A stretch of DNA of 64,000 bases. It comes from Chloroflexota bacterium. Its GTDB lineage: Bacteria > Chloroflexota > Anaerolineae > Anaerolineales > E44-bin32. The translations under genes were made by a program, and so were the position numbers. Location: positions 2,194 through 66,193 of the forward strand of contig JAJRUD010000139.1 in NCBI GenBank assembly GCA_024277995.1. Reading direction: 5' to 3'. Below the pieces are notes generated by a model that had not been told where the DNA came from, ran no database searches, and saw only the letters and a list, made by a program, of their open reading frames with translations. Below, piece by piece: positions 4,507 through 58,449 of this stretch (position 1 is its first letter; each line of letters starts with the position of its first letter).

Positions 4507-5943
4507 TTAGCTCAGCCCCCGGATGCGATCCGCCTGGTCCGCGGGCTCAAGACTCAGGGGTCCCGTTCGTTCCTCCAACAGGGCGATCAGCGCGTCAGCC
4601 AGCTTGGCGGAGTCGTGTCGCCAGGGCCGTTCCCGGTCCACCAGATCTGCGCAGTGACACAGCGCCACCGCCTCCTCGCCGGGCGGCTGCACCCACCCGA
4701 TGCCATCGGGCAGGTTGCCCTGCAGACAGTCGTTGGCCAGGACCAGGTCCACCAGATGCCCACCGACGTGCTCCAGCAGGGCAGCCACGTGCTGATCGCA
4801 CGAATAGAAGTCCGTCTCCCCCGGCTGTGTGGCCACGTTGCAGACGTAAACCTTGAAGGCCTTGCTGGCGCGGATGGCTTCCAGCAGATCAGGCACCAGC
4901 AGGTTCGGCAGCACGCTGGTGTACAGGCTGCCCGGGCCGATGACGATCATATCGGCGTTCAACACCGCCCGAATGGCGCCGGGGTATGCAGGCGGGTCAT
5001 TGGGTTCAAGCTGCACGCGGCGGATGCGTCCGGGAACCATGGGGATGCGGCTCTCCCCTTCAACGCGCACGGCCTGGACATCCGCCGTGGGAAGCTTGTC
5101 GGCCACGAGCGCGATGTCCTGCAGCGTGGCGGGCAACACCTTGCCCTGGATGGCCAGGACGCGCCCGGCTTCCAGCACCCCTTGCTCGAAAGACCCCGTC
5201 ACGCCCGTCAGGGCGGCGATGAACAAGTTGCCGAAGGAGTGGCCGCCCAGCTCATCGCCATCGCGAAAGCGGTACTGGAAAAGCTGCGTGAGCAAATCCT
5301 CATCGTTGGAAAGCGCTGCCAGGCAGCTGCGCAGATCACCCGGCGGAGGCAGGCCGAGCGAGCGCCGCAAGCGCCCCGAGGAGCCGCCGTCATCGGCCAC
5401 CGTCACGATGGCCGTCAGATTGTCGCTGTACTTCTTCAGGCCGCGCAGCAGCGTCGAGAGCCCCGTTCCGCCCCCGATGGCCACGATGTGCGGCCCACGC
5501 TTGCGCCGGCGGTGTGCCGCTACGGCCTCCACCAGCGGCTTTCCCGGGCGCAGATAGGGGGCCAGCAACGTACGGTTGAGCTGCCAGATGGAGAGCGCCA
5601 CCAGCCCGAAGCCGATAGAGCCGAAAATCACAGCCCGCAGCCAGCGCGGCAGGGCGGCTAAGCTGACGATGGCCAGCCAGGGTGAACCGGGATGTGCGCG
5701 ATAGATGTCAAGCAGAACCACGGCCACGCCCAACCCGATGGCGGTCGTCCCGATAACCATCAAGACGAACCAGCGTTTGACACCAAGACCGGGCTGAAAC
5801 CACCGCCACAGCAGGCGCAGGCGCCCCGTGGACGAACCGTTCGCAGGGGATACCGAACCGTTGTCCGCCACGTCGCCCACTATACCAGAGGTAGATGGGA
5901 GCGTCAACGCGGCACACCTCTGCCGCGCGCGATCTTGCCTCAC
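4507..5943 (-). CDS. YvcK/CofD-like gluconeogenesis-factor family protein with N-terminal membrane extension
   Basis: 478-aa ORF. IVAIGGGTGLSTLLRGLK, TAIVTVADDGGSSGRLR and IGPGSLYTSVLPNLL are characteristic of the YvcK (UPF0052) family. About 140 extra N-terminal residues contain 3 predicted TM helices. The start (GTG 5943, GGAG 7 nt upstream) is uncertain. Confidence 0.85.
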   Translation of the reverse strand: MRQDRARQRCAALTLPSTSGIVGDVADNGSVSPANGSSTGRLRLLWRWFQPGLGVKRWFVLMVIGTTAIGLGVAVVLLDIYRAHPGSPWLAIVSLAALPRWLRAVIFGSIGFGLVALSIWQLNRTLLAPYLRPGKPLVEAVAAHRRRKRGPHIVAIGGGTGLSTLLRGLKKYSDNLTAIVTVADDGGSSGRLRRSLGLPPPGDLRSCLAALSNDEDLLTQLFQYRFRDGDELGGHSFGNLFIAALTGVTGSFEQGVLEAGRVLAIQGKVLPATLQDIALVADKLPTADVQAVRVEGESRIPMVPGRIRRVQLEPNDPPAYPGAIRAVLNADMIVIGPGSLYTSVLPNLLVPDLLEAIRASKAFKVYVCNVATQPGETDFYSCDQHVAALLEHVGGHLVDLVLANDCLQGNLPDGIGWVQPPGEEAVALCHCADLVDRERPWRHDSAKLADALIALLEERTGPLSLEPADQADRIRGLS

Positions 5944-5998: not shown

Positions 5999-7102
5999 AT
6001 GGCCAGCGTGACCTACGAACACGTCACGAAACGATTCGGAAACGTCGTCGCCGTGAACGACCTGAACATACATATTGAGGACAAGGAATTCCTTGTCCTG
6101 GTGGGGCCGTCCGGGTGTGGCAAGACCACCTCCCTGCGCCTCATCGCCGGCCTGGAGGAGATCACCGAGGGACGCATCCTTATCGGCGATCGGGTGGTGA
6201 ACGACATACCCCCTAAAGATCGCGACATCGCCATGGTCTTCCAATCCTACGCCCTCTATCCCCACATGTCGGTCTTCGACAACATGGCCTTCGGTCTCAA
6301 ACTGCGCAAGGTCCCCAAGGCGGAAATCAAACGCCGGGTCCAGGAAGCAGCGGAGATCCTGGGCATCGAGGAGTTGCTGGACCGCAAGCCGCGCCAGCTC
6401 TCCGGCGGGCAGCGGCAGCGCGTGGCCGTCGGTCGCGCCATCGTGCGCGAACCCAAGGTCTTCCTCTTCGATGAGCCGCTGTCTAACCTGGACGCCAAGC
6501 TGCGCGTGCAGACCCGGGCCGAGATCAGCAAGCTGCACCTGCGTCTGCAGACCACTTTCATCTACGTCACACACGACCAGGTGGAAGCCATGACGATGGC
6601 CACCAGGATCGCCGTGATGAAAGACGGCATCCTGCAGCAGTTGGACTCGCCACAAAGTCTCTACGATTATCCGGCGAATGTCTTCGTCGCCGGCTTCATC
6701 GGCTCACCGGCCATGAACTTCTTCAACGCCCGCCTGGTGCGGGGGGACGGTGGCCTGGTGGTCGACGCCGGGACGTTCCAGGTTCCCGTCCCCGCCTCTT
6801 TGCTCGAGAGATACGCCGCTTACGAGGGGAAGAACGTGATCTTCGGCATCCGTCCCGAAGACATACACGACCCGGCCTTCACCCCGCCGGACATCAGCGC
6901 CGCGACGGTGGAGGCCAACGTCGAGGTGCTGGAGCCCATGGGCAACGAGGTCATCCTGTACCTCTCGAGCGACAGCCACTCCTTCGGTGGGCGCGTAGAC
7001 CCTCGCAGCCAGGCGCGGCCCGGCAGCAAGATGCAGGTCATCTTCAACATGGATAACATGCATCTGTTCGAGACGGACGGCGACCAGAAGGCGATCCGCT
7101 GA
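5999..7102 (+). CDS. sugar ABC transporter ATP-binding protein (MalK/UgpC/MsiK type), orphan ATPase
   Basis: 367-aa ORF. Walker [10 protein letters not shown], signature [10 protein letters not shown], Walker [12 protein letters not shown], and a C-terminal TOBE-like regulatory domain. No permease or solute-binding-protein genes are adjacent. Confidence 0.93.
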
Positions 7103-7120
7103 ACCAGCGGCGCGCAATTC

Positions 7121-7148
7121 AAGCCCCTGCCCGGCACGGCGGGGGCTT
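7121..7148 (+). terminator. rho-independent terminator after the ABC ATPase gene
   Basis: An 11-bp stem (7121-7131 pairs with 7138-7148, with one G.U pair) and a 6-nt loop, followed by tttctc. It lies 19 nt after the stop. Confidence 0.65.
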
Positions 7149-7168
7149 TCTCACGTCAGGAGGAGGAT

Positions 7169-8380
7169 ATGCCTGAGTTCGACCTCATGCGCCGCCTGCA
7201 CCGCGCCGGCCGCCAGAAGGTCATCCTGTTGATACTGGACGGCCTTGGCGGCCTGCCCATCGAGCCCGATGGTCCCACCGAGTTGGAAACGGCGCGCACG
7301 CCGAACATGGATCGCCTGGCCGCCGAAGGCATCCTGGGGCAAATCGTCCCCGTGCGGCTCGGCATCACGCCCGGTTCCGGCCCCGCCCATCTGGCTCTCT
7401 TCGGATACGATCCCCTTACCTTCGACGTAGGGCGCGGCGTCCTGGAGGCCACCGGCGTCGGTATGCACGTCGCGGCCGGAGACGTGGCAGCCAGGGGAAA
7501 TTTCTGCACGCTCGATTCAGAGGGCAAGATCGTCGATCGCCGCGCCGGCCGCATCCCCAGCCAGGAAGCCCTCCCGCTGGTGGAACGCCTGGCCGGGATC
7601 AGCATCCCCGACGTGGAGATCGAGGTGCGCCACGTGCGCGAATACCGCTTCGCGGTCGTCCTGCGCGGCCAGGGCCTCGATCCATCCCTGGCCGACACCG
7701 ACCCCCAACAGACCGGGCGCGCGCCGCTCCCCGTCGAGCCCACCGCGCCCGAAGCGACGCGCACGGCGCAGATCTTCAACACGTGGGTCGAGCAGGCTAG
7801 GTCCCTGCTGTCCGACCAGCCGAAGGCAAACGGCCTCACCCTGCGCGGCTTCTCAACCAACCCCTCCCTGCCGCAGTTCGACGAAATCTACGGCCTGAAG
7901 GCCGCCGCCGTAGCGGTCTACCCGATGTATCGCGGCGTGGCCAAACTGGTCGGGATGGAGATCCACCATTTCGAGGGCGAAAGCCCCCAGGATGAGTTCG
8001 CCGCCGTCGCCTCCGCCTGGAACGAGTACGACTTCTTCTTCATCCACATCAAGAAGACCGACAGCAAAGGCGAAGATGGGGACTTCCACGGCAAGGCGGC
8101 CATCATCGAAAGCGTCGACGGAGCCCTGCCCCAACTGCTGGACCTGGGTCCCGCCGCCCTGGCCATCACCGGCGACCACAGCACCCCGGCACGCATGAAG
8201 ACCCATTCCTGGCATCCCGTTCCGCTGCTGCTCTGGGCACCGCAAACGGTGCGACCCGACAACCAACGCTCCTTCGGCGAGCGAGCTTGCGCCACCGGCG
8301 GCCTGGGCACCTTGCCGGCGACGGACCTGCTGCCGCTGCTGCTGGCCCACGCCGGGCGACTGAACAAATACGGAGCCTGA
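7169..8380 (+). CDS. apgM: cofactor-independent phosphoglycerate mutase, archaeal-type (ApgM family)
   Basis: 403-aa ORF. KVILLILDGLGG, TPNMDRLA, HIKKTDSKGEDGD and ITGDHSTP match the metal-dependent phosphopentomutase/ApgM fold. AGGAGGAGGA RBS. Confidence 0.9.
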   Translation: MPEFDLMRRLHRAGRQKVILLILDGLGGLPIEPDGPTELETARTPNMDRLAAEGILGQIVPVRLGITPGSGPAHLALFGYDPLTFDVGRGVLEATGVGMHVAAGDVAARGNFCTLDSEGKIVDRRAGRIPSQEALPLVERLAGISIPDVEIEVRHVREYRFAVVLRGQGLDPSLADTDPQQTGRAPLPVEPTAPEATRTAQIFNTWVEQARSLLSDQPKANGLTLRGFSTNPSLPQFDEIYGLKAAAVAVYPMYRGVAKLVGMEIHHFEGESPQDEFAAVASAWNEYDFFFIHIKKTDSKGEDGDFHGKAAIIESVDGALPQLLDLGPAALAITGDHSTPARMKTHSWHPVPLLLWAPQTVRPDNQRSFGERACATGGLGTLPATDLLPLLLAHAGRLNKYGA

Positions 8381-27581: not shown

Positions 27582-28565
27582 CTAGGGAGCAGATGGCAGC
27601 GCCGGCTCCCGGCGCGCAGCCTCCTCCAACTTGGCCGCCAGCAGCGCCCGGGTCTCGGCCATCGTCTCCTCGACGTAGGGATATGCCAGCCAGACATTCA
27701 TCACGCCGAAGAGCCCGCCGGTGAGCGTGCGCAAGAAGGGTGTGCTCTCACGCGCCGGCAGGAAATCCAGGAAGGGAAGCCGCAGGCTCGAGACCAACTG
27801 CGTTCCGCCATCGAGCGCGATGGGAACGATACCCAGCAAGACCCAAAGTACAATGGGGAGCGGCTTGAGCCGCCTGCGCAGCAGGCCGAAGATCAGCCCG
27901 GCAACCAGCATGCTCCCGTAGATGGCCACATCCCGTTCACAAAGGGCCACCTTGTAGCCGAGCCGCTCGTCACCCACGTACGCGCGCGCCGCCCAGAGAT
28001 CGGATGCGTCGATCCCCGTAGCCTCGCTGAAGCTGGTCAGATCCGTTCCGGCCGTGGCCAGCGGATACGCCGGCTGCTCGCCGAAGAGGAACCAGGATCG
28101 GAAGGCAAGCTGGTGACAGAGCGGCGAGTAGGCCTTGTAGATCCAGCTCGCGGGCCGCGTCGCACCCGCTTTCATCAAGGCCGGTGCAGCGAAAGGCAGC
28201 CCGACGTAGAGCAGCACCATCAGGTTGAAGAGCGCCAGCCAGTGCTTGGCCAGGAAGAGCACCGCCCTGTTGAGCCGCGCCGCCCAGAGGCCGTTCGCCT
28301 GCCTGCCGCCCTGCGCATGGACACGATCGCGCGCGGCGGCCAGCGCGACTGCCAAGTCGCGGCGGTCGAAGGGCGCCTCGAGGATGTAGGGCCCCACTTG
28401 AACCACGGGGATCTTTTCCATGTACTTCGTCAAGAGCGTCGGCTCGCTCTCGATGTCCACCAGGACCAGCCGGTGCGGGATCTCCTCCCTCAGCGATTCC
28501 AGATGGTCCAGGGCTCGCTCGCAAAGCGAGCATCCATCCCTGGTATAGACAGTGACGCGTATCAT
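27582..28565 (-). CDS. glutaredoxin-like domain fused to DUF2085 membrane domain
   Basis: 327-aa ORF. The N-terminal ~80 aa are thioredoxin-fold (VYTRDGCSLCERA...IPVVQV). The C-terminal part is a polytopic domain with SPLCHQLAFRSWF and ALCERDVAIYG, the DUF2085 hallmarks. 4-nt overlap with tlpA. Confidence 0.7.
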   Translation of the reverse strand: MIRVTVYTRDGCSLCERALDHLESLREEIPHRLVLVDIESEPTLLTKYMEKIPVVQVGPYILEAPFDRRDLAVALAAARDRVHAQGGRQANGLWAARLNRAVLFLAKHWLALFNLMVLLYVGLPFAAPALMKAGATRPASWIYKAYSPLCHQLAFRSWFLFGEQPAYPLATAGTDLTSFSEATGIDASDLWAARAYVGDERLGYKVALCERDVAIYGSMLVAGLIFGLLRRRLKPLPIVLWVLLGIVPIALDGGTQLVSSLRLPFLDFLPARESTPFLRTLTGGLFGVMNVWLAYPYVEETMAETRALLAAKLEEAARREPALPSAP

Positions 28566-29152
28566 CCCGCTCCCATTCCCGCCTGTGCCAGATAATCATC
28601 AATCTGCGATTCCGTCATCAGGCCGATGTGAACGACGCGTATCACACCCTCGCGGTCGACGAAGAAACTGGAGGGATAGCCGCGCACGCGATACAGCTCC
28701 TGCACGCGGGCGTCGGGGTCCAGCAACATGGGGAAAGTCAGGCCCAGTTCGTCTCGGAAGGCGCGCACGTCATCCTCGGGCTCGTCAAAATCCACCGCCA
28801 ATATGGAGAACCCCGCATCCTGCAACGCGTCGTAGCGGGCCTGCAGGGCAGGCATCTCGATCCGGCAAGGGCCGCACCACGTGGCCCAGAAATTGATCAG
28901 AACCACCTGCCCCCGCAGATCGCTGAGGCTGACCGTCCGGCCTTCGAGGTCCTTCAGCGTGAAATCCGGAGCCGGCGCACCCTGCACGGGCGCCACAGCG
29001 ATGGCCGGTTGCACCATCGCGTCGCCCACCGACGCAAGGGACACGCCACTGCGCAGGGAGGCCGTGAAATAGACTACGCCCAACCCCAGCCCCAGGAGAA
29101 CACCCCCAAGCACGATCCACCAACCCATTGTCCGACTTGATCCTGCCGCCAT
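28562..29152 (-). CDS. TlpA/ResA-family thiol:disulfide oxidoreductase (membrane-anchored thioredoxin)
   Basis: WATWCGPC active site with an N-terminal anchor WWIVLGGVLLGLGLGVVYF. I placed the start at ATG 29152 because the longer ORF would include the 29188..29214 hairpin. Confidence 0.88.
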   Translation of the reverse strand: MAAGSSRTMGWWIVLGGVLLGLGLGVVYFTASLRSGVSLASVGDAMVQPAIAVAPVQGAPAPDFTLKDLEGRTVSLSDLRGQVVLINFWATWCGPCRIEMPALQARYDALQDAGFSILAVDFDEPEDDVRAFRDELGLTFPMLLDPDARVQELYRVRGYPSSFFVDREGVIRVVHIGLMTESQIDDYLAQAGMGAG

Positions 29153-29187
29153 CGTCCACCGCCAGAAGAGAAACCAGCTACAAACCG

Positions 29188-29214
29188 GGGGAGCGCCCCG
29201 GAGGGGCGCTCCCC
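29188..29214 (-). terminator. intercistronic hairpin / terminator-like element between ccdA and tlpA
   Basis: A perfect 12-bp GC-rich stem (ggggagcgcccc / ggggcgctcccc) with a 3-nt loop lies 14 nt after the ccdA stop. On the minus strand it is followed by GGTTTGTAGCTGGTTTCTCTTC. Confidence 0.5.
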
Positions 29215-29227
29215 ACACCCTGCAGGG

Positions 29228-29953
29228 CTAGAGTCCCAGATCTATAAAGAAGCCGAAGCGGGCCAACTGCTGCATGGTGCCGGTCAGGAGCATCACTCCC
29301 ACGATGACGAGCACCACACCCGTCGCCACCGACAGCCCTTTCACGAGCCGCCCATGGCGACGCATCAACTCCGCCGCACGGCCGATGCCCAGGGCCGCCA
29401 GCAAGAAGGGCACCGCCAGACCGACCGAGTAGGCGCTGAGCAGCACCACACCGCGATTGATGTCCGCTGAGCTGAGCGCCAGGGTGAGAACGGCCCCCAG
29501 GACCGGGCCAACGCAGGGTGCCCACCCCGCCGAAAAGAAAACTCCCATGAGCGCCGACGAAAGGTAGCCGGCATCCGGCTTCGCCTGCGCCTGTCGCCGC
29601 GTATCGTAATCCAGGAATGGGATGTTGATGACGCCCATCGTGTGAAGCCCGAAGATGATCACCACCACTCCGCCAATGCGAGCGAGCCACGTCCGCAGAT
29701 CGTAGAGCACCGCGCCCAGTGCCGAAGCCGCTGCGCCCAGGATCACGAAAACCACACTGAACCCCAAGACGAAAGCGACCCCATGGCTGAAGGTCACCCA
29801 GCGGTTCTCCACCACGTGCCCGGAGGGGGTCACCGACCGGCCTCCCAGATAACCGACGTACGCCGGTACCAGTGCCAGCACACACGGCGAAAGGAAGGAG
29901 GCCAATCCGGCCAGAACGGCCAATCCAACGGTCACGTTGTTCGGATCCATCAT
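29228..29953 (-). CDS. ccdA: cytochrome c biogenesis protein CcdA (DsbD-family thiol-disulfide transporter)
   Basis: 241-aa ORF with 6 TM helices. LSPCVLALVP and WAPCVGPVLG carry the two conserved Cys. Confidence 0.9.
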   Translation of the reverse strand: MMDPNNVTVGLAVLAGLASFLSPCVLALVPAYVGYLGGRSVTPSGHVVENRWVTFSHGVAFVLGFSVVFVILGAAASALGAVLYDLRTWLARIGGVVVIIFGLHTMGVINIPFLDYDTRRQAQAKPDAGYLSSALMGVFFSAGWAPCVGPVLGAVLTLALSSADINRGVVLLSAYSVGLAVPFLLAALGIGRAAELMRRHGRLVKGLSVATGVVLVIVGVMLLTGTMQQLARFGFFIDLGL

Positions 29954-49479: not shown

Positions 49480-50121
49480 TCAGCTCTCCTGCGTCGCGGC
49501 CCGTTCCGCGGCCTCACGCTCCATCTCGGCGATGGCGTTGGCCACAGCCTCGATGGCTACACGCTGCTTGCGGTACAGATCGGCCTCGGACATGGCCAGG
49601 CGCATGGCCACGTCCCGCACCTTGCGACCCTCGAGGAATTTCAGCTCGAGGATGTTGTACAGCATCCATTCGGCCGTAAAGCGCCTTTCCCCCTCCGGTC
49701 GCATGCGATCGATCCCCCTGCGCAGGATGGCGCGCAGCGCGTTCACCGGATTGCCGTCGTGCTCCTGCATGGCCTCCCGCACCACGCGCAAGCGCAACAG
49801 CGGGCTTTGCGTCAGGCGCGGCCCGCCCCAGTAATGCCCCAGCGCCTCACGCACCATCTGCGCCAGATCGGCATCGCCGGGCAATTCATCCAGCGAGCCA
49901 GTGAGCGCCGGAGACCCCACATAGCGCGCCATGGCTCGCATGCGCTGGATGGCTTCCACCTTCGGCACCAGGCGGTCCACCACTGCAAAAACATCGCGCT
50001 GCAGCAGCCGATCGGCCAGGGCCACCGCCGCGCGATCGGCCAGGGCGCTCACACCCTCTGCCTGCTCATCTCCGAGAGCAGGTCGGCTGTCGGTGCGGCG
50101 CAGCCCAAGCAGCCCGATCAC
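49480..50121 (-). CDS. C-terminal part (end of GAF domain + HTH, sigma-70 region-4-like) of a membrane sensor-regulator split by an in-frame TAG
   Basis: The ORF begins at GTG 50121, directly after the TAG at 50122-50124. IGLLGLRR...AEGVSALADRAAVALADRLL is the last strand and helix of a GAF fold. The C-terminal YNILELKFLEGRKVRDVAMRLAMSEADLYRKQRVAIEAVA is HTH-like. Confidence 0.6.
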   Translation of the reverse strand: MIGLLGLRRTDSRPALGDEQAEGVSALADRAAVALADRLLQRDVFAVVDRLVPKVEAIQRMRAMARYVGSPALTGSLDELPGDADLAQMVREALGHYWGGPRLTQSPLLRLRVVREAMQEHDGNPVNALRAILRRGIDRMRPEGERRFTAEWMLYNILELKFLEGRKVRDVAMRLAMSEADLYRKQRVAIEAVANAIAEMEREAAERAATQES

Positions 50122-51405
50122 CTAGTCCGAATCCGGCGAACGCAGCGGCAGCAGCCAGTAGGCATCCCACGCGAAGAGCGTGCCGAGCGCATCCACGTTG
50201 AGTTTCTCATCGGTCACGAGCAAGGGAGGCAACTCCTCCCCGCCGCGCAAGGGGTCGTCCGGGCCTACGCTGACCTCGAGCTCGAGGCCCTGGTCTCCCA
50301 ACGCCGCCACGAAGGCCGACGGCGCTTCTGTGATGTCGCAGACGGCGTTCAGCACCGCCTCCAGGAACTGTTTCAGGTCGCCGGTGGTGAGCAGGCGCTC
50401 CTCCAGGAGGTGCAGGCGGGCCATGTCTTCCCGGTCTTCTCCGTAGAAAAGCCAGCGCTCGATGGGCGGGCGGATTAGCGTGATCACGTATTGCAGCAGG
50501 AGGATGGTCGTCACCATGGCGAAGGGAACGGCCCGGCTGCGTTCCAACCCCAGCAGCAGGCCGACGCGGTTGACAACCACCGTGACGGCCAAGGTAGAGG
50601 AGGCCACGACCGGCCCGCGCAACAACCACTGGAAGAGCCTGCTCTTGATCACGCGATCCGGGATGCCGACGCCGAAGTAGGCCACGGCATAGGCCATCAT
50701 CACCAACAGGATGGCCACCAGCGTGTTCACAGCCGTCAGTGTGAACCAGAAGAGCAGCGAGGCTCTCGCGAGCGGGGTGTTGCCCAGGGCCATGAGAAAG
50801 GGGAAGGTACCCAGGACGGGGCCGAGCGATCCCAGCATCAGGTAGGCCATACGACGACGGCTGGTTCGGGTCAGGCAGCGGCGGTAGGCGCGCCCGTAAT
50901 TGAGCGCTGCGAAGCCCAGGGTGAAGGTGAAATAAAGCAGGAAAAGCGGGAAGAGGCGCCCCGGCTGCAGGTAGGCCGCCGCATCGGCCTGGGCCAGCGG
51001 GCCAGCCAGTTCGTCGCTCAGCGCCGCGACGAGCGCGCCGGCCCCGGCCACGACGTAGGCTATCCGCACCGCCAGGCGCCGCCGACCGCGCGATGGCCGC
51101 CCGGTGGCCGCCATCAAGGCATCGGAAAGCTGCAGGTATGCCGCGGGGAGAAAACTGATCCCCAGCCATTGCAGCCGCAGCCAGAGTTCAACCTCGTGTG
51201 GGTCATCCGTGGTCCCGCCCAACACGTCAAAGAAATAGGTGGCGGCGACGCACAGCAATACCAGGGCCAGCGCGCGCGCCACCCGTTCGCGCAGGTTGAA
51301 GGTCAACGCATAGAGCAGCAGCGAGAAGGCCGTGATGGCATTGCCCGCATTGAGGATCTGATTCAGCACCAGCAGGGTGCTCATCATTGCCTGAGAGAAG
51401 TCCAT
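50122..51405 (-). CDS. N-terminal part (about 8 TM helices + first two-thirds of a GAF domain) of the same split sensor-regulator
   Basis: 427 codons ending ...AYWLLPLRSPDSD-TAG. The ORF is in frame with 49480..50121 and contiguous with it (1926 nt total). Confidence 0.6.
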   Translation of the reverse strand: MDFSQAMMSTLLVLNQILNAGNAITAFSLLLYALTFNLRERVARALALVLLCVAATYFFDVLGGTTDDPHEVELWLRLQWLGISFLPAAYLQLSDALMAATGRPSRGRRRLAVRIAYVVAGAGALVAALSDELAGPLAQADAAAYLQPGRLFPLFLLYFTFTLGFAALNYGRAYRRCLTRTSRRRMAYLMLGSLGPVLGTFPFLMALGNTPLARASLLFWFTLTAVNTLVAILLVMMAYAVAYFGVGIPDRVIKSRLFQWLLRGPVVASSTLAVTVVVNRVGLLLGLERSRAVPFAMVTTILLLQYVITLIRPPIERWLFYGEDREDMARLHLLEERLLTTGDLKQFLEAVLNAVCDITEAPSAFVAALGDQGLELEVSVGPDDPLRGGEELPPLLVTDEKLNVDALGTLFAWDAYWLLPLRSPDSD

Positions 51406-55721: not shown

Positions 55722-56132
55722 ATGTTCCGACCCAGAACCCTCGGCATGCTGATCCTGACAGCGCTGATCGCCGTCGCGAGCGGCTGCTCCCGGGGCCCGG
55801 CCGCGAAGGATGAGGCGCCGGAGATCACGCTGGACCTGCGCGTGAGTTCCACCGAGGTTGGCGGCAAGGCAATGCTCGCGTTTTCGCTCGCAGATGCCCA
55901 GGGTGAACCTGTCGAAGGCGCCAAACTGACGGTCACTGGACAGGCGGAAACCGAAGGGACTGAACCCGTCATCCGTCAGGGATACGCACAAGGGGCGGGC
56001 GTCTACCTCGTCCCTTTCACCTGGACCGAGGGGGGCAATTGGGCCCTGGACATCACGGCCGAACTCCCCGACGGCAGAACCCTCCGGCGGACCATCAAGG
56101 TACGCGTACTTAGCCTGGAAAAGGTGCCGTAG
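55722..56132 (+). CDS. lipoprotein with FixH/YtkA-like beta-sandwich domain
   Basis: 136-aa ORF. Signal peptide plus lipobox LIAVASGC. The single beta domain (GEPVEGAKLTVTG...GNWALDITAELPDGRTL) resembles YtkA/FixH-type domains. GGGAGG RBS. Confidence 0.7.
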   Translation: MFRPRTLGMLILTALIAVASGCSRGPAAKDEAPEITLDLRVSSTEVGGKAMLAFSLADAQGEPVEGAKLTVTGQAETEGTEPVIRQGYAQGAGVYLVPFTWTEGGNWALDITAELPDGRTLRRTIKVRVLSLEKVP

Positions 56133-56147
56133 GGGGACATGAAAGCA

Positions 56148-56170
56148 GGGGGTGCCCGGCGGGCGCCCCC
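56148..56170. terminator. bidirectional terminator hairpin between convergent genes
   Basis: A 10-bp GC-rich stem (56148-56157 pairs with 56161-56170, with one G.U pair) and a 3-nt loop lie between stops at 56132 (+) and 56196 (-). Confidence 0.5.
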
Positions 56171-56195
56171 CATCGGAGACAGAGCAGCCGCAGAG

Positions 56196-57110
56196 CTACG
56201 CCTTCCTCTCCCTCGGATCGAGCAGCACCAGTAGCCCCAGGGTCCCCATATCCGCGAAGAGCAGCGGAGCCAGCACCGGAGCACCGCGCAAGAACCGCTC
56301 GCCGACCAGCGTGCCACGGGAGGTGAGGTTGACGTCGATGTGCAATACCGCGCCCACCACACCCACAAACACCAGCAAGACCATGCTCAGGGCATAGAGC
56401 GTCAGGTCGCTGCGCGTCGGCCGATCGAGCGCGCCCAGAGCCACCGCCGCCACGGTTCCGATCACCCCCGCCAGCGTGGGTATCCAGAGCCAGGGGTTCT
56501 GGAACTGGACTCGCGCGTGATCCAGTACGCTGCTGATGAGCGTGGCGAGCGTGCCCATGCCCACCATGAAGAAGTAAGCGCGCGTCTTGCTGTAGGGCAG
56601 CTGCAGGCGACGGTCCCCGAAGAGGATCAGCGTGCCGCTGTCAGGCGGATCTTCGACCCAGGCTGCGCTGATCCCCAACAGGCCGATCAGCGAAAAGGTG
56701 AGCGGCCCCAGGATGGGCGGTGCCCAGACCAGCAGGTCGATGGAGACACGCTGGCCCGGCAGCGCATAGGGAAGGATGGCGCGCAGCAAATGAAAATAGG
56801 CACCCAACAGTCCTACGGCGATGCTGGCCAGGAAGGCCGTCGTGGCCAGGACCGTGGCCAGCGGCCGATTGCGCAGCGCGATCAGCCCGGCGATCAGCAG
56901 AACGGCTCCCGCGAGCGGGCCGAAGATGATCGGGATCCACTCGTTGGGGACGATGGTGCCGCTGATGCTGTGGGCCAGGTAGATGTCCAGCCCCAGAAAG
57001 ATCTCGTTGACGGCGGCCATGAGCAGCATCCACTGATCCCGGCTGAGCGGCAGGCGGCCCTCCAGTCGGCCCGCCGCGGGCCAGACGGCGGAGAGATACG
57101 AGGTGCTCAC
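56196..57110 (-). CDS. polytopic membrane protein translationally coupled to the octaheme cytochrome (possible heme-b/quinone-interacting subunit)
   Basis: 304-aa ORF with about 8 TM helices and no CxxCH. Four His in or near predicted helices (YLAHS, AYFHLL, VLDHAR, AVLHID) occur as two similar halves. 4-nt overlap with the cytochrome gene. Confidence 0.65.
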   Translation of the reverse strand: MSTSYLSAVWPAAGRLEGRLPLSRDQWMLLMAAVNEIFLGLDIYLAHSISGTIVPNEWIPIIFGPLAGAVLLIAGLIALRNRPLATVLATTAFLASIAVGLLGAYFHLLRAILPYALPGQRVSIDLLVWAPPILGPLTFSLIGLLGISAAWVEDPPDSGTLILFGDRRLQLPYSKTRAYFFMVGMGTLATLISSVLDHARVQFQNPWLWIPTLAGVIGTVAAVALGALDRPTRSDLTLYALSMVLLVFVGVVGAVLHIDVNLTSRGTLVGERFLRGAPVLAPLLFADMGTLGLLVLLDPRERKA

Positions 57111-58390
57111 TTACCCACCCCCGCTGCTTCCAGTTTCTCCTGCACGACCTCACGCAGTTCGGCCAGGTCGGCGAGGATCTCATAGGCGCCGTGCCACTGG
57201 ACGTAATCCGCGCCCTGCATCCAGACGCCGAATTTGGCCGTCCGCCCCCAGTGATGCCAGAGCTCGAAGTACAGGAAGTCGATGGGTTCATCGAAGGGCT
57301 CGGAAGTTAGCAGGCCGCGCTCCTTGAGCGGTGCCACGATCTCGTCGCTTTCCTTCACCCAGGCGTTCACCTTCTCCGTGGCCTTGTCGGCTGCGGTGTA
57401 GAAGTCCTCGATGAAATCCTTGTTGTGGCACTCCATGCACACGCTCTGCATGCGCGTGCGGTTGTCCTGCCAACCCGGCCGGCGCGTGCTGATGGGGGGG
57501 AAGAGGAACCAGGTCAGCCGTTCACCCACGTCGTGCGTGGTCGAGGCGCCCCCAAAGCCGCTCATATGGCAGATGGCGCAGGTCGCGGCCGGGAAGTCCT
57601 GCACGTCGAGCGTACCCGCCTCCGCCTCCCAATTCCAGCGCTGTCCGCCCGTCGCATAGGCAATGCCATGGGACGACTCCTGGTAGATCTCCCACTGCGG
57701 GTGATCCGGGCCGATGTGACACGCGTTGCACGTTTCGGGCTTGCGGACCTGCTCCAGGCTGAACTCATGGCGCAGGTGGCATTTGGTGCAATCCCCCACC
57801 GATCCGTCCTGTGCTGGTTTGCCGATGTTGTGGCAGCTTTCGCAGGCGAAGCGCGTGATCTCCGGACCTTCGATGGCGTACAGCGCGTTGCGCATGCGGT
57901 CGGGGTTGTAACCGCCCTCCGGGATGACCTCATACGTGGCGAGCAGGTCATCGCGCAGCCCTTCGGCGCCGGCATAGGCCACATAGGCCGGAAGGGCGTG
58001 CCGGCTCTGATTGAATTGAGCCACCTCGGTGGCATGACACCGCTCGCACATGGCCGCCGTCGGTTGCCCCAGGACGAAAGTCCCCTCATGCTCCACGGCG
58101 CCCGGGTAGTTGCGGGCCACTTCGTGGCAGTCGCGACAGGCGACCTCGGCCGCGGCCATGCTGCTGTAGGCAAACTGCTCGACGATGCCCGGGGTATTGC
58201 GCCGGTGGCAGACCACACATTCATCGCTGCTGCCGGCCAGCGCGTCGACGCGCGCTTCAGGGGTCTCGGTGGCGGAGCGACCGATGACCACCCCCACCAA
58301 CGCAATCCCCAACACTACGATCACGGCCACCAGGGCGATGACCAGGATGCGACCGGCCTCCAGAGGCGATGTACTTCCTTCTTCCGCCAT
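57107..58390 (-). CDS. membrane-anchored octaheme c-type cytochrome, hydroxylamine-oxidoreductase (HAO)-like family
   Basis: 427-aa ORF with an N-terminal TM anchor and eight CxxCH sites: CVVCH, CRDCH, CERCH, CESCH, CTKCH, CNACH, CAICH, CMECH. CNACHIGPDHPQWEIYQESSHG resembles the HAO-family core. GAGGAGGA RBS. Confidence 0.88.
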   Translation of the reverse strand: MAEEGSTSPLEAGRILVIALVAVIVVLGIALVGVVIGRSATETPEARVDALAGSSDECVVCHRRNTPGIVEQFAYSSMAAAEVACRDCHEVARNYPGAVEHEGTFVLGQPTAAMCERCHATEVAQFNQSRHALPAYVAYAGAEGLRDDLLATYEVIPEGGYNPDRMRNALYAIEGPEITRFACESCHNIGKPAQDGSVGDCTKCHLRHEFSLEQVRKPETCNACHIGPDHPQWEIYQESSHGIAYATGGQRWNWEAEAGTLDVQDFPAATCAICHMSGFGGASTTHDVGERLTWFLFPPISTRRPGWQDNRTRMQSVCMECHNKDFIEDFYTAADKATEKVNAWVKESDEIVAPLKERGLLTSEPFDEPIDFLYFELWHHWGRTAKFGVWMQGADYVQWHGAYEILADLAELREVVQEKLEAAGVGK

Positions 58391-58449
58391 GACGTATCCT
58401 CCTCATAAGGTACGCAAGACGCTGGGGGTTGTGCCTCCGCACACTCTCA

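Follow-up and report, generated by a model that had tools for sequence, protein, structure and literature searches.

An octaheme cytochrome and its conserved eight-helix neighbour: a candidate quinone-linked module in Chloroflexota

How might a multiheme enzyme on the outer face of the bacterial cytoplasmic membrane be supplied with electrons when no gene for a tetraheme membrane partner lies near its own? This question is raised by a gene pair in a stretch of DNA of 64,000 nucleotides from a Chloroflexota bacterium (GTDB lineage Bacteria; Chloroflexota; Anaerolineae; Anaerolineales; E44-bin32), which covers positions 2,194 to 66,193 of contig JAJRUD010000139.1 in assembly GCA_024277995.1 and is referred to as the window. 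The first gene encodes an octaheme cytochrome c of the hydroxylamine oxidoreductase (HAO) family, and the second encodes a protein with eight transmembrane (TM) helices, here called the 8-TM protein (Table 1). We consider it fairly probable that the pair is a membrane-bound respiratory or detoxifying module that joins the quinone pool to an N-oxide-reducing octaheme cytochrome. With about the same confidence, the 8-TM protein can be regarded as a new membrane electron-transfer subunit that replaces NapC/NrfH, to which we would ascribe heme b and the oxidation of quinol.

Both genes are rich in G and C at the third codon position, as are real genes of this sequence of 65% GC. Both proteins are 72–78% identical to proteins from metagenome-assembled genomes (MAGs) of Anaerolineae-class Chloroflexota. 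An earlier note, made from the letters of the window, had given the coordinates and lengths of the two open reading frames (ORFs) and their 4-nt stop/start overlap correctly. It had also stated that no tetraheme gene lies nearby, and this holds for the 64-kb window: the cytochrome is its sole ORF with more than one CxxCH motif, and no NapC/NrfH, c554 or cM552 gene is present in it.

Table 1. Positions of the gene pair, its sites and the convergent gene within the window
Feature	Position	Strand	Basis or remark
HAO-family octaheme cytochrome c, epsilon-Hao/IhOCC type, 427 aa	57107..58390	-	PF13447, PDB sequence matches, eight CxxCH
8-TM protein, 304 aa, unannotated family, duplicated four-helix unit	56196..57110	-	AlphaFold (AF2) model, internal repeat, without library match
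4-nt overlap of cytochrome stop (gene end 57107) and start of membrane gene (GTG at 57110)	57107..57110	-	read from sequence
Shine-Dalgarno-like GAGGAGG, 7 nt 5' of cytochrome ATG	58398..58404	-	read from sequence
N-terminal membrane anchor of cytochrome, about residues 14-37	58280..58351	-	hydropathy 3.34 over residues 18-36
Fourth CxxCH, C183ESCH187, predicted catalytic heme	57830..57844	-	aligns to C229TMCH233 (heme P460 motif) of Nitrosomonas HAO (NeHAO)
Asp229-His230, distal catalytic pair	57701..57706	-	aligns to NeHAO Asp267-His268
Met391...Trp399, at cross-linking-Tyr site of oxidising HAOs	57194..57220	-	8-residue register
His47, outer end of TM1	56970..56972	-	invariant in alignments A1 and A2, down to 23% identity
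His107, outer end of TM3, after invariant Gly100 and Gly103	56790..56792	-	in 97% of diverse alignment A2
His198, outer end of TM5, LDHA motif	56517..56519	-	invariant
His257, outer end of TM7, after Gly250 and Gly253	56340..56342	-	invariant
Convergent lipoprotein, 136 aa, lipobox LIAVASGC	55722-56132	+	YtkA/FixH matches sub-threshold

The cytochrome and its probable direction of catalysis

The earlier note described a 427-residue protein with an N-terminal anchor, eight CxxCH motifs and no CxxCK, and this description is accurate. The eight motifs (C58, C85, C115, C183, C201, C221, C271 and C318) use all 16 cysteines of the protein, and its sequence contains no CxxCK, Cx3-4CH or other variant heme site; a match to a "long spacer" heme-site pattern proved to be merely two ordinary neighbouring motifs. 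The HAO core GPDHPQWEIYQESSHG has SGVDHNNWEAYTMSKHG as its counterpart in the NeHAO alignment. Pfam and NCBIfam matches were judged against the curated cut-off of each model. The PF13447 match reaches 111.9 bits against a cut-off of 21.9 and spans profile positions 2-264 of 269, and the only substantial NCBIfam match, hydrazine dehydrogenase (HDH), scores 89.6 bits, far under the model cut-off of 900. The best match among PDB sequences is IhOCC of Ignicoccus (4QO5, E 2.5e-32). It is followed by the HAO-family proteins Nitrosomonas HAO, HDH, KsHOX and Kustc0458, the entries matched after 4QO5 being 1FGJ (NeHAO, 5e-27), 6HIF (1e-19), 4N4J (2.5e-18) and 6H5L (1.4e-15). In the same search, NrfA (1OAH) appears only at E 0.72, and ONR, OTR and MccA are unmatched. 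The Pfam match and this ranking bear out the family that the note had preferred over NrfA, ONR, OTR and MccA.

The database labels of homologues conflict: they include "nitrate reductase", "hydroxylamine dehydrogenase" and "multiheme c-type cytochrome". In a study of hypersaline mats, GenBank "nitrate reductase" sequences cluster with HAO-family proteins (PMC8940962). One of these sequences, RMG99710.1, is presumably, from its accession prefix, a Chloroflexi MAG protein of the cytochrome's clade.

The active-site residues were compared with those of characterized relatives. Conservation was followed in 28 orthologues, in which D229-H230 is invariant. The cytochrome has nine histidines outside the heme motifs, and all of them are invariant in the same 28 sequences, which is enough for seven distal ligands and the catalytic His. 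The active-site Tyr334 of NeHAO aligns to Phe297. Heme 4 is the catalytic heme of HAO.

The earlier note had proposed to check for the C-terminal tyrosine that forms the cross-link in oxidising HAOs. In both NeHAO (His459...Tyr467) and KsHOX, a His and this Tyr are spaced eight residues apart. NeHAO residues 360-504 were checked against 4FAS. Automatic alignment with hhalign is ambiguous in the loop before the last helix, and the register was anchored on the residue at -8 instead. In this ungapped register, the cytochrome carries M391 and W399 opposite NeHAO H459 and Y467; among orthologues, M391 is kept in 79 of 80 and W399 in 80 of 80. In a passage of PMC8940962 that cites Haase 2017, epsilon-Hao proteins are described as having Trp in place of this Tyr, with a conserved Met at -8. 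The check thus yields the epsilon-Hao signature. Another tyrosine, Tyr396 (QGADY), lies three residues before Trp399 and is near-invariant in Anaerolineae. It was considered as the counterpart of the cross-linking Tyr and rejected because it is Phe in the distant paired orthologues L007 and L008 (related loci carry L numbers); the -8 register and the published epsilon-Hao criterion also rule it out in favour of Trp399.

On these sequence features, the cytochrome appears to be an HAO-family member of the non-cross-linked, reductive type. Since the Tyr cross-link tunes HAO towards oxidation and the cross-linking Tyr is absent, the cytochrome should reduce nitrite, hydroxylamine and/or nitric oxide (NO). 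The opposite direction, a forward hydroxylamine-ubiquinone redox module (HURM) in which the cytochrome oxidises hydroxylamine or NO and the 8-TM protein reduces quinone, is improbable in our judgement. Many homologues are labelled hydroxylamine dehydrogenase or oxidoreductase, the Asp-His pair is common to oxidising HAOs, and Tyr396 lies near-invariant in the very loop concerned. However, this tyrosine is replaced by Phe in L008 and L007, as said above, and NeHAO Tyr334 faces Phe297. In addition, the Pfam-annotated genes called in the loci that were looked up include neither amo/pmo nor NapC/NrfH-type genes, and the lack of amo/pmo there speaks against oxidation, as do the neighbours that are seen, namely Crp/Fnr, NirK-like and hcp genes.

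The mode of attachment of the cytochrome is also conserved. The N-terminus has a single hydrophobic segment of 19–22 residues, and the first heme motif starts about 20 residues past this helix. In orthologues, conservation of the helix is periodic, with one face kept, and the flanking linkers vary. The positions at which the commonest residue reaches at least 85% are R14, L16, G19 (Ala in the window), L20, V23, V26, G28 and L31.

The eight-helix protein and its conservation beside c-type cytochromes

The co-occurrence of the two genes, which the earlier note had suggested examining, was followed in one genome per GTDB species. A relative of the 8-TM protein was found in 269 genomes, and the best 80 were examined. 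These are Chloroflexota MAGs of the Anaerolineae class in a broad sense (Anaerolineales, Caldilineales, Ardenticatenales, Promineifilaceae, Aggregatilineaceae and Thermoflexus) and one Gemmatimonadales bin. Three loci are cut by a contig end before the upstream gene, and 77 could be assessed. In all 77, the gene immediately upstream is an HAO-like ORF of the same strand, separated from the membrane gene by about -4 to +3 nt. It has eight CxxCH motifs in 75 loci, and seven and four motifs in two ORFs shortened at the 5' end.

The association extends to distant relatives. Thirteen 8-TM members of 24–33% identity were looked up, and an HAO-like gene lies directly upstream, often overlapping, in 10 of them. 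The loci are L005/L006, the P0199 locus and L007, L008 (Cystobacter fuscus DSM 2262), L010/L011 (a spore-former context), L094/L095, L096 (a sponge metagenome), L099 and L100, and also L009 and L097, where the contig ends within the upstream gene and only its 3' part is present. At L005:2627-6219 and in L006, the 8-TM gene follows a tandem of two HAO-family genes (425 and 463 aa). The other three members (L004, L092/L093 and L098) belong to one sub-branch of the 8-TM family and have a membrane-anchored monoheme class I cytochrome c of 82–129 aa upstream instead (L092:4608-5867, L098:506-1829, L004:5691-7470). The gene upstream of the 8-TM gene is a c-type cytochrome gene in 13 of 13 distant members, which fits the role of an electron-transfer partner. 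The anchor of the monoheme proteins (KVWRNL...) resembles that of the HAO-like proteins in L099 and L100. This similarity, together with the conservation of the anchor on one face, suggests that the anchor helix of the cytochrome may be part of the interface with the 8-TM protein.

The pair ranges over many uncultured Chloroflexi, some myxobacteria and Firmicutes. It is barely credible that the adjacency is fortuitous and that the two proteins have no functional connection: the pair is kept in every assessable locus and across phyla at 24–33% identity, with frames that usually overlap or abut, and synteny effectively refutes the idea. The earlier note had put itself at risk on two points and survives on both, as the cytochrome does not fall into a non-HAO family and the membrane gene is co-conserved with HAO-like genes.

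The AF2 model of the 8-TM protein, made from a diverse 35-sequence alignment, is confident (predicted local distance difference test, pLDDT, 92.2; predicted template modelling score, pTM, 0.90). Eight TM helices are modelled, and the central loop forms a short beta hairpin. The note had proposed a protein of 304 residues with roughly eight TM helices and an internal two-fold repeat, and had quoted the contexts of four histidines. All of this is found: His 47, 107, 198 and 257 stand in these contexts, and residues 18-152 align with residues 170-304 over 129 columns (hhalign probability 99.8%, E 5e-29). Each half consists of a helix ending in (A/D)H, a helix opened by (E/P)W(I/L)P, a GxxGxx(F/L)H helix and a fourth helix opened by APxxAPL. 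His107 and His257 each have Gly at i-4 and i-7.

The orientation of the protein can be deduced from its charges. Across the family, Lys and Arg number 8.3 in the N-terminus, the even loops and the C-terminus, and 3.6 in the odd loops; this asymmetry indicates that the N-terminus and C-terminus are inside. With the N-terminus inside, all four His are placed at the outer ends of TM1, 3, 5 and 7. The positions conserved in at least 80% of the family lie nearly all in the outer helix halves, and none lies in a cytoplasmic segment. From this model, the functional site is predicted to be on the outer face, where the c-type hemes are. Because the four His are all on the outer side, the 8-TM protein would, unlike cytochrome b or NarI, not form a di-heme wire across the membrane.

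The HMM (hidden Markov model) and structure searches that the note had called for revealed no known relative of the 8-TM protein and no family unrelated to redox chemistry to which it could belong. The protein and 35 relatives, scanned one by one, stay below the curated cut-off of every Pfam and NCBIfam model, and NCBIfam gives no match to the protein at E up to 1. Against PDB sequences, phmmer with the protein finds nothing better than E 1.5, and the family profile gives no match at E up to 10. A Foldseek search of the PDB with the model yields no entry at E below 0.08 and none with a TM-score above 0.3. The b-type cytochrome families (cytochrome b, Ni_hydr_CYTB, NarI, Sdh_cyt and FRD) are unmatched by the 35 members at E up to 1. 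The protein contains no CxxCH motif and is not of the NapC/NrfH/cM552 kind, which has four such motifs and a single TM helix; the NosB stretches LNHYIGM and YGHN are also absent from it. Nevertheless, the family is large, with more than 2,500 proteins in a set of 5.8 billion sequences and 409 clusters at 50% identity. In the sources, its members are mostly called hypothetical, and two JGI entries bear unrelated names.

A proposed electron route and its competitors

It is proposed that the conserved N-terminal helix holds the cytochrome on the outer face of the cytoplasmic membrane. There, the cytochrome, with seven bis-His hemes and a catalytic heme 4 with an Asp-His distal pair, would reduce nitrite, hydroxylamine and/or NO. 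The 8-TM protein, as modelled, is made up of two tandem four-helix bundles, each with a His pair on its first and third helices, diagonal to one another and at equal depth. Each pair may ligate one b-type heme, or form a quinol-oxidising site, in the outer leaflet; alternatively, a cofactor-free quinol site could abut heme 1 of the cytochrome. Menaquinol would give up its electrons sideways to heme 1 and its protons to the outside, and the quinol-oxidation step would be non-electrogenic, as in NrfH. The Gly residues at i-4/i-7 offer a flat face, as in heme-packing helices, and such residues on the third helix, with His pairs at equal depth, would accommodate a bis-His heme within the outer leaflet. 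The formation of a complex, the cofactor, the oxidation of quinol, the direction of electron flow and the substrate are all points that we infer, and the heme b or quinol site in particular is proposed from topology, conservation pattern and context. The substrate is suggested by analogy with two proteins: IhOCC, described as an octaheme nitrite reductase (PMC9250108), and Kustc0458, a nitrite-to-NO reductase (PMC8042395). Epsilon-Hao is listed as a dissimilatory nitrite reductase in PMC10949509.

There are several membrane systems with which such a module can be compared. The first comparison is with the machinery that the 8-TM protein would replace. In NrfHA and NapC/CymA, a small membrane quinol dehydrogenase with outer-side cofactors feeds a multiheme N-oxide reductase without charge translocation. 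The same logic is proposed here without any sequence or cofactor relationship, as NrfH combines a single TM helix with four c hemes. Proteins of the NrfD/PsrC/ActC family, which have at least eight TM helices, no cofactor and a quinol site close to the outer side of the membrane, pair with an Fe-S subunit. Their two tandem four-helix bundles and the position of their functional site recall the 8-TM protein. However, none of the 35 members matches Pfam NrfD, Foldseek finds no match to solved members, and the partner of the 8-TM protein is directly a cytochrome c instead of an Fe-S subunit. The cytochrome b of bc1, NarI, FdnI and CbcL are similar in having His on alternate or diagonal helices with small residues nearby, and some b-type membrane subunits pair with multiheme c proteins. 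They carry two His per helix and hemes on both sides, whereas the 8-TM protein has one His per helix, on the outer side only, and no homology to them is detectable in the 35-member scan or the profile search.

The cytochrome has closer counterparts. In the (reverse) HURM and in NrfHA, a small membrane quinol dehydrogenase with outer-side hemes feeds a multiheme enzyme (PMC3701875). The epsilon-Hao of Nautilia and Campylobacter is likewise an octaheme HAO without the cross-linking Tyr and, according to the passage of PMC8940962 cited above, with the Trp and the Met at -8. Like the module proposed here, it has been put forward as a quinol-fed nitrite/hydroxylamine reductase at the membrane's outer face (PMC3701875, PMC8940962). 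Its partner is the tetraheme c protein CycB/cM552 of the NapC/NrfH type; here, the partner is a translationally coupled 8-TM protein free of heme c, and the window cytochrome, unlike the epsilon-Hao module, itself carries a conserved membrane anchor. IhOCC of the archaeon Ignicoccus hospitalis (Igni_0955, 4QO5) also lacks the cross-link Tyr, and its C-terminal helices align without gaps. It differs in having Phe at the position of Trp399 and Trp at that of Tyr396 (Met/+8 register). The literature consulted for the comparison describes no membrane partner of IhOCC. Finally, NosB of clade II nos clusters and HaoB of ammonia oxidisers are also membrane proteins encoded beside the gene of a periplasmic N-cycle enzyme. 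NosB is distinct from the 8-TM protein, as L004 has a separate 202-aa gene with LNHYIGM and YGH beside its 8-TM gene.

The cytochrome is a new member of a kind already known, the epsilon-Hao/IhOCC-like reductive HAO, and the 8-TM family is new to annotation. Judged by the searches and comparisons described here, the membrane partner seems to be none of NapC/NrfH, NrfD, a Pfam b-type cytochrome, NosB or a heme-handling protein. A limited search of the literature found no description of it.

The electron-transfer reading is favoured by the gene context in relatives, with Crp/Fnr regulators (16 loci), a NirK-like gene, DUF1858, CcmE/F and hcp, and by the lack of a NapC/NrfH-type gene in the window and among the annotated genes of the loci examined. 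Some observations weigh against it. No known heme b or quinone-binding family is matched by the 8-TM family in HMM or Foldseek searches. Its four His are all on one side of the membrane, unlike those of classical di-heme b subunits, and a metal site is just as conceivable for them. Beyond the 64-kb window, the genome may contain a NapC/NrfH gene. In the window, neither an N-cycle gene nor a Crp/Fnr regulator adjoins the pair, and the region 5' of the cytochrome gene lacks an FNR box. Modelled with AF2 from 28 close homologues, the cytochrome gives a poor structure with a pLDDT of 48.6. Homotrimers with three long C-terminal helices are typical of the HAO family; at its low confidence, the model contains long C-terminal helices at 324-357, 369-392 and 394-422.

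The 8-TM protein might instead be a maturation, assembly or stabilising factor, either a heme-handling protein on the outer face or an anchor scaffold, that carries no electrons. The heme-handling proteins CcsA, CcmC and CcmF have outer-face His ligands, and the conserved outer-face His pairs and Trp/Pro-rich segments (EWIP, PWLW, APPxxAPL) recall such proteins. The gene before the 8-TM gene is always a c-type cytochrome gene, and CcmE/CcmF adjoin the pair in 4–5 loci. However, neither the protein nor any of the 35 members matches the Cytochrom_C_asm profile or the WWD domain in Pfam, and eight ordinary CxxCH motifs need no special lyase. The partners, moreover, are both octaheme HAO-like proteins and small monoheme cytochromes, which general maturation systems handle anyway. 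For these reasons, we regard this explanation as unlikely.

Another explanation takes up the metal site. The four outer-face His would then bind Fe, Cu or Zn, and the protein would be no quinol dehydrogenase but a membrane enzyme or channel that acts on what the cytochrome consumes or makes, for example NO, hydroxylamine or ammonium. The bundle is indeed pseudo-symmetric, with its four His at the same depth on four helices, one member is located inside a cluster for the copper enzyme Nos, and there are weak matches to 7-TM hydrolases with His-bound metal (Ceramidase in three members, best E 0.0066, and HlyIII in one). These matches are below threshold and do not fit a 4+4 duplication, no Met or Cys is conserved that could bind Cu(I), and the adjacency to nosZ is lost in a homologue of 92% identity. 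As the cytochrome would also remain without an electron donor, a metal centre seems to us a poor prospect.

A role in electron transfer is still the reading that we prefer. A far wider version of it can be formulated, in which the 8-TM four-His family is an unrecognised class and fold of quinol:cytochrome c oxidoreductase, with one b heme per bundle. It would be a general coupling device for anchored c-type cytochromes in Chloroflexota, Myxococcota and Firmicutes and would define the nitrite/hydroxylamine reduction of the Anaerolineae "hao" genes. This version is tentative, and we lean slightly against it.

Gene surroundings and significance

The earlier note had also drawn attention to a YtkA/FixH-like lipoprotein. 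Such a gene does exist and converges on the operon, and this part of the claim stands. Its proposed place in the module does not: the Pfam scores are sub-threshold (YtkA 24.6 bits, cut-off 25.9; FixH 21.3, cut-off 23), and a homologue, a weak one, occurs in only 1 of 80 related loci. The lipoprotein appears to be a neighbour and not a component. Between the convergent stops there is a GC-rich 10-bp stem with a 3-nt loop and no T run (56148-56170). In its folding, the intergenic RNA of 63 nt does not surpass shuffled sequence (z -0.11). A consensus scan upstream of the cytochrome found no sigma-70-like promoter, and the terminator scan was likewise empty. In related loci, FNR boxes were found upstream in only 4 of 73 cases, with about 2 expected.

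Elsewhere in the window, three consecutive genes on the reverse strand (27582-29953) resemble components of thiol-disulfide metabolism and cytochrome c biogenesis, judged from their N-terminal sequences. They include a CcdA/DsbD-like membrane protein (29228-29953) and a glutaredoxin-like CxxC protein (27582-28565). A 427-aa polytopic membrane protein (50122-51405, reverse strand) is followed by a 213-aa protein (49480-50121, reverse strand) whose C-terminus looks like a sigma-70 region 4 or helix-turn-helix domain.

In the Anaerolineae-class loci, the recurrent neighbours are Cupin_2 (about 22), Crp/Fnr (16), DUF166 (10) and ferritin (7), and the tandem COX1-like 4-TM proteins recur in 5 loci, as do CcmE/CcmF in the number given above. 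The Cupin_2 protein has 114 aa and is encoded directly upstream of the cytochrome. The COX1-like proteins have 135–140 aa and match the first COX1 helices. Examples within L012-L091 are L039:6900-7244, L064:1694-2398, L055:6247-7014 and L058:1838-2672. A kinship of the 4-TM repeat unit of the 8-TM protein with these small COX1-like/DUF2871-like neighbours was considered and rejected (hhalign probability below 1%).

Directly 3' of the pair, L002:9070-13666 and L003:2933-7529 hold genes for a Crp/Fnr regulator, a DUF1858 protein and a 487-aa NirK-like multicopper/cupredoxin protein, in addition to a cupin, a 366-aa protein and a small COX1-like protein. By their sequences, these downstream genes look like an N-oxide gene island. 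L099 has two further features, at 5478-5696 and 6952-7662: an hcp-like gene (N-terminus CYQCQET...GVCGK) about 4 kb downstream of the pair, and a 72-aa ORF that resembles the last quarter of the 8-TM family and is possibly the remnant of a second copy.

The locus L004:5691-12299 contains a 30%-identical 8-TM member, P0211, inside a clade-II-type nos cluster. The gene order is monoheme cytochrome c, the 8-TM gene, called as fused to the N-terminus of NosZ, the rest of NosZ, the 202-aa NosB-like protein, NosD, NosF and NosY. The nosZ gene is frameshifted here, and in L098 the 92%-identical homologue stands as a gene of its own (291 aa) without a neighbouring nosZ. On these grounds, the fusion is probably an assembly frameshift or a one-off.

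The significance of the pair lies partly in how Chloroflexi genomes are read. Many surveys of metagenomes count Chloroflexi "hao" genes (K10535, PF13447), and the homologues identified in this analysis are of the non-cross-linked, reductive type and always come with a conserved, unannotated membrane protein. The 8-TM family has a confident structural model and no solved relative. Its members also occur in the cultured myxobacteria Cystobacter fuscus DSM 2262, Minicystis rosea and Aggregicoccus sp. 17bor-14, which makes the hypothesis directly testable. If the 8-TM protein is indeed a quinol dehydrogenase, it would solve a standard bioenergetic problem in a new way, as an extracytoplasmic multiheme enzyme would draw on the quinone pool without NapC/NrfH. 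The protein would then provide a route of electron input for the reduction of nitrite, hydroxylamine or NO in abundant bacteria of wastewater, sediment and soil.

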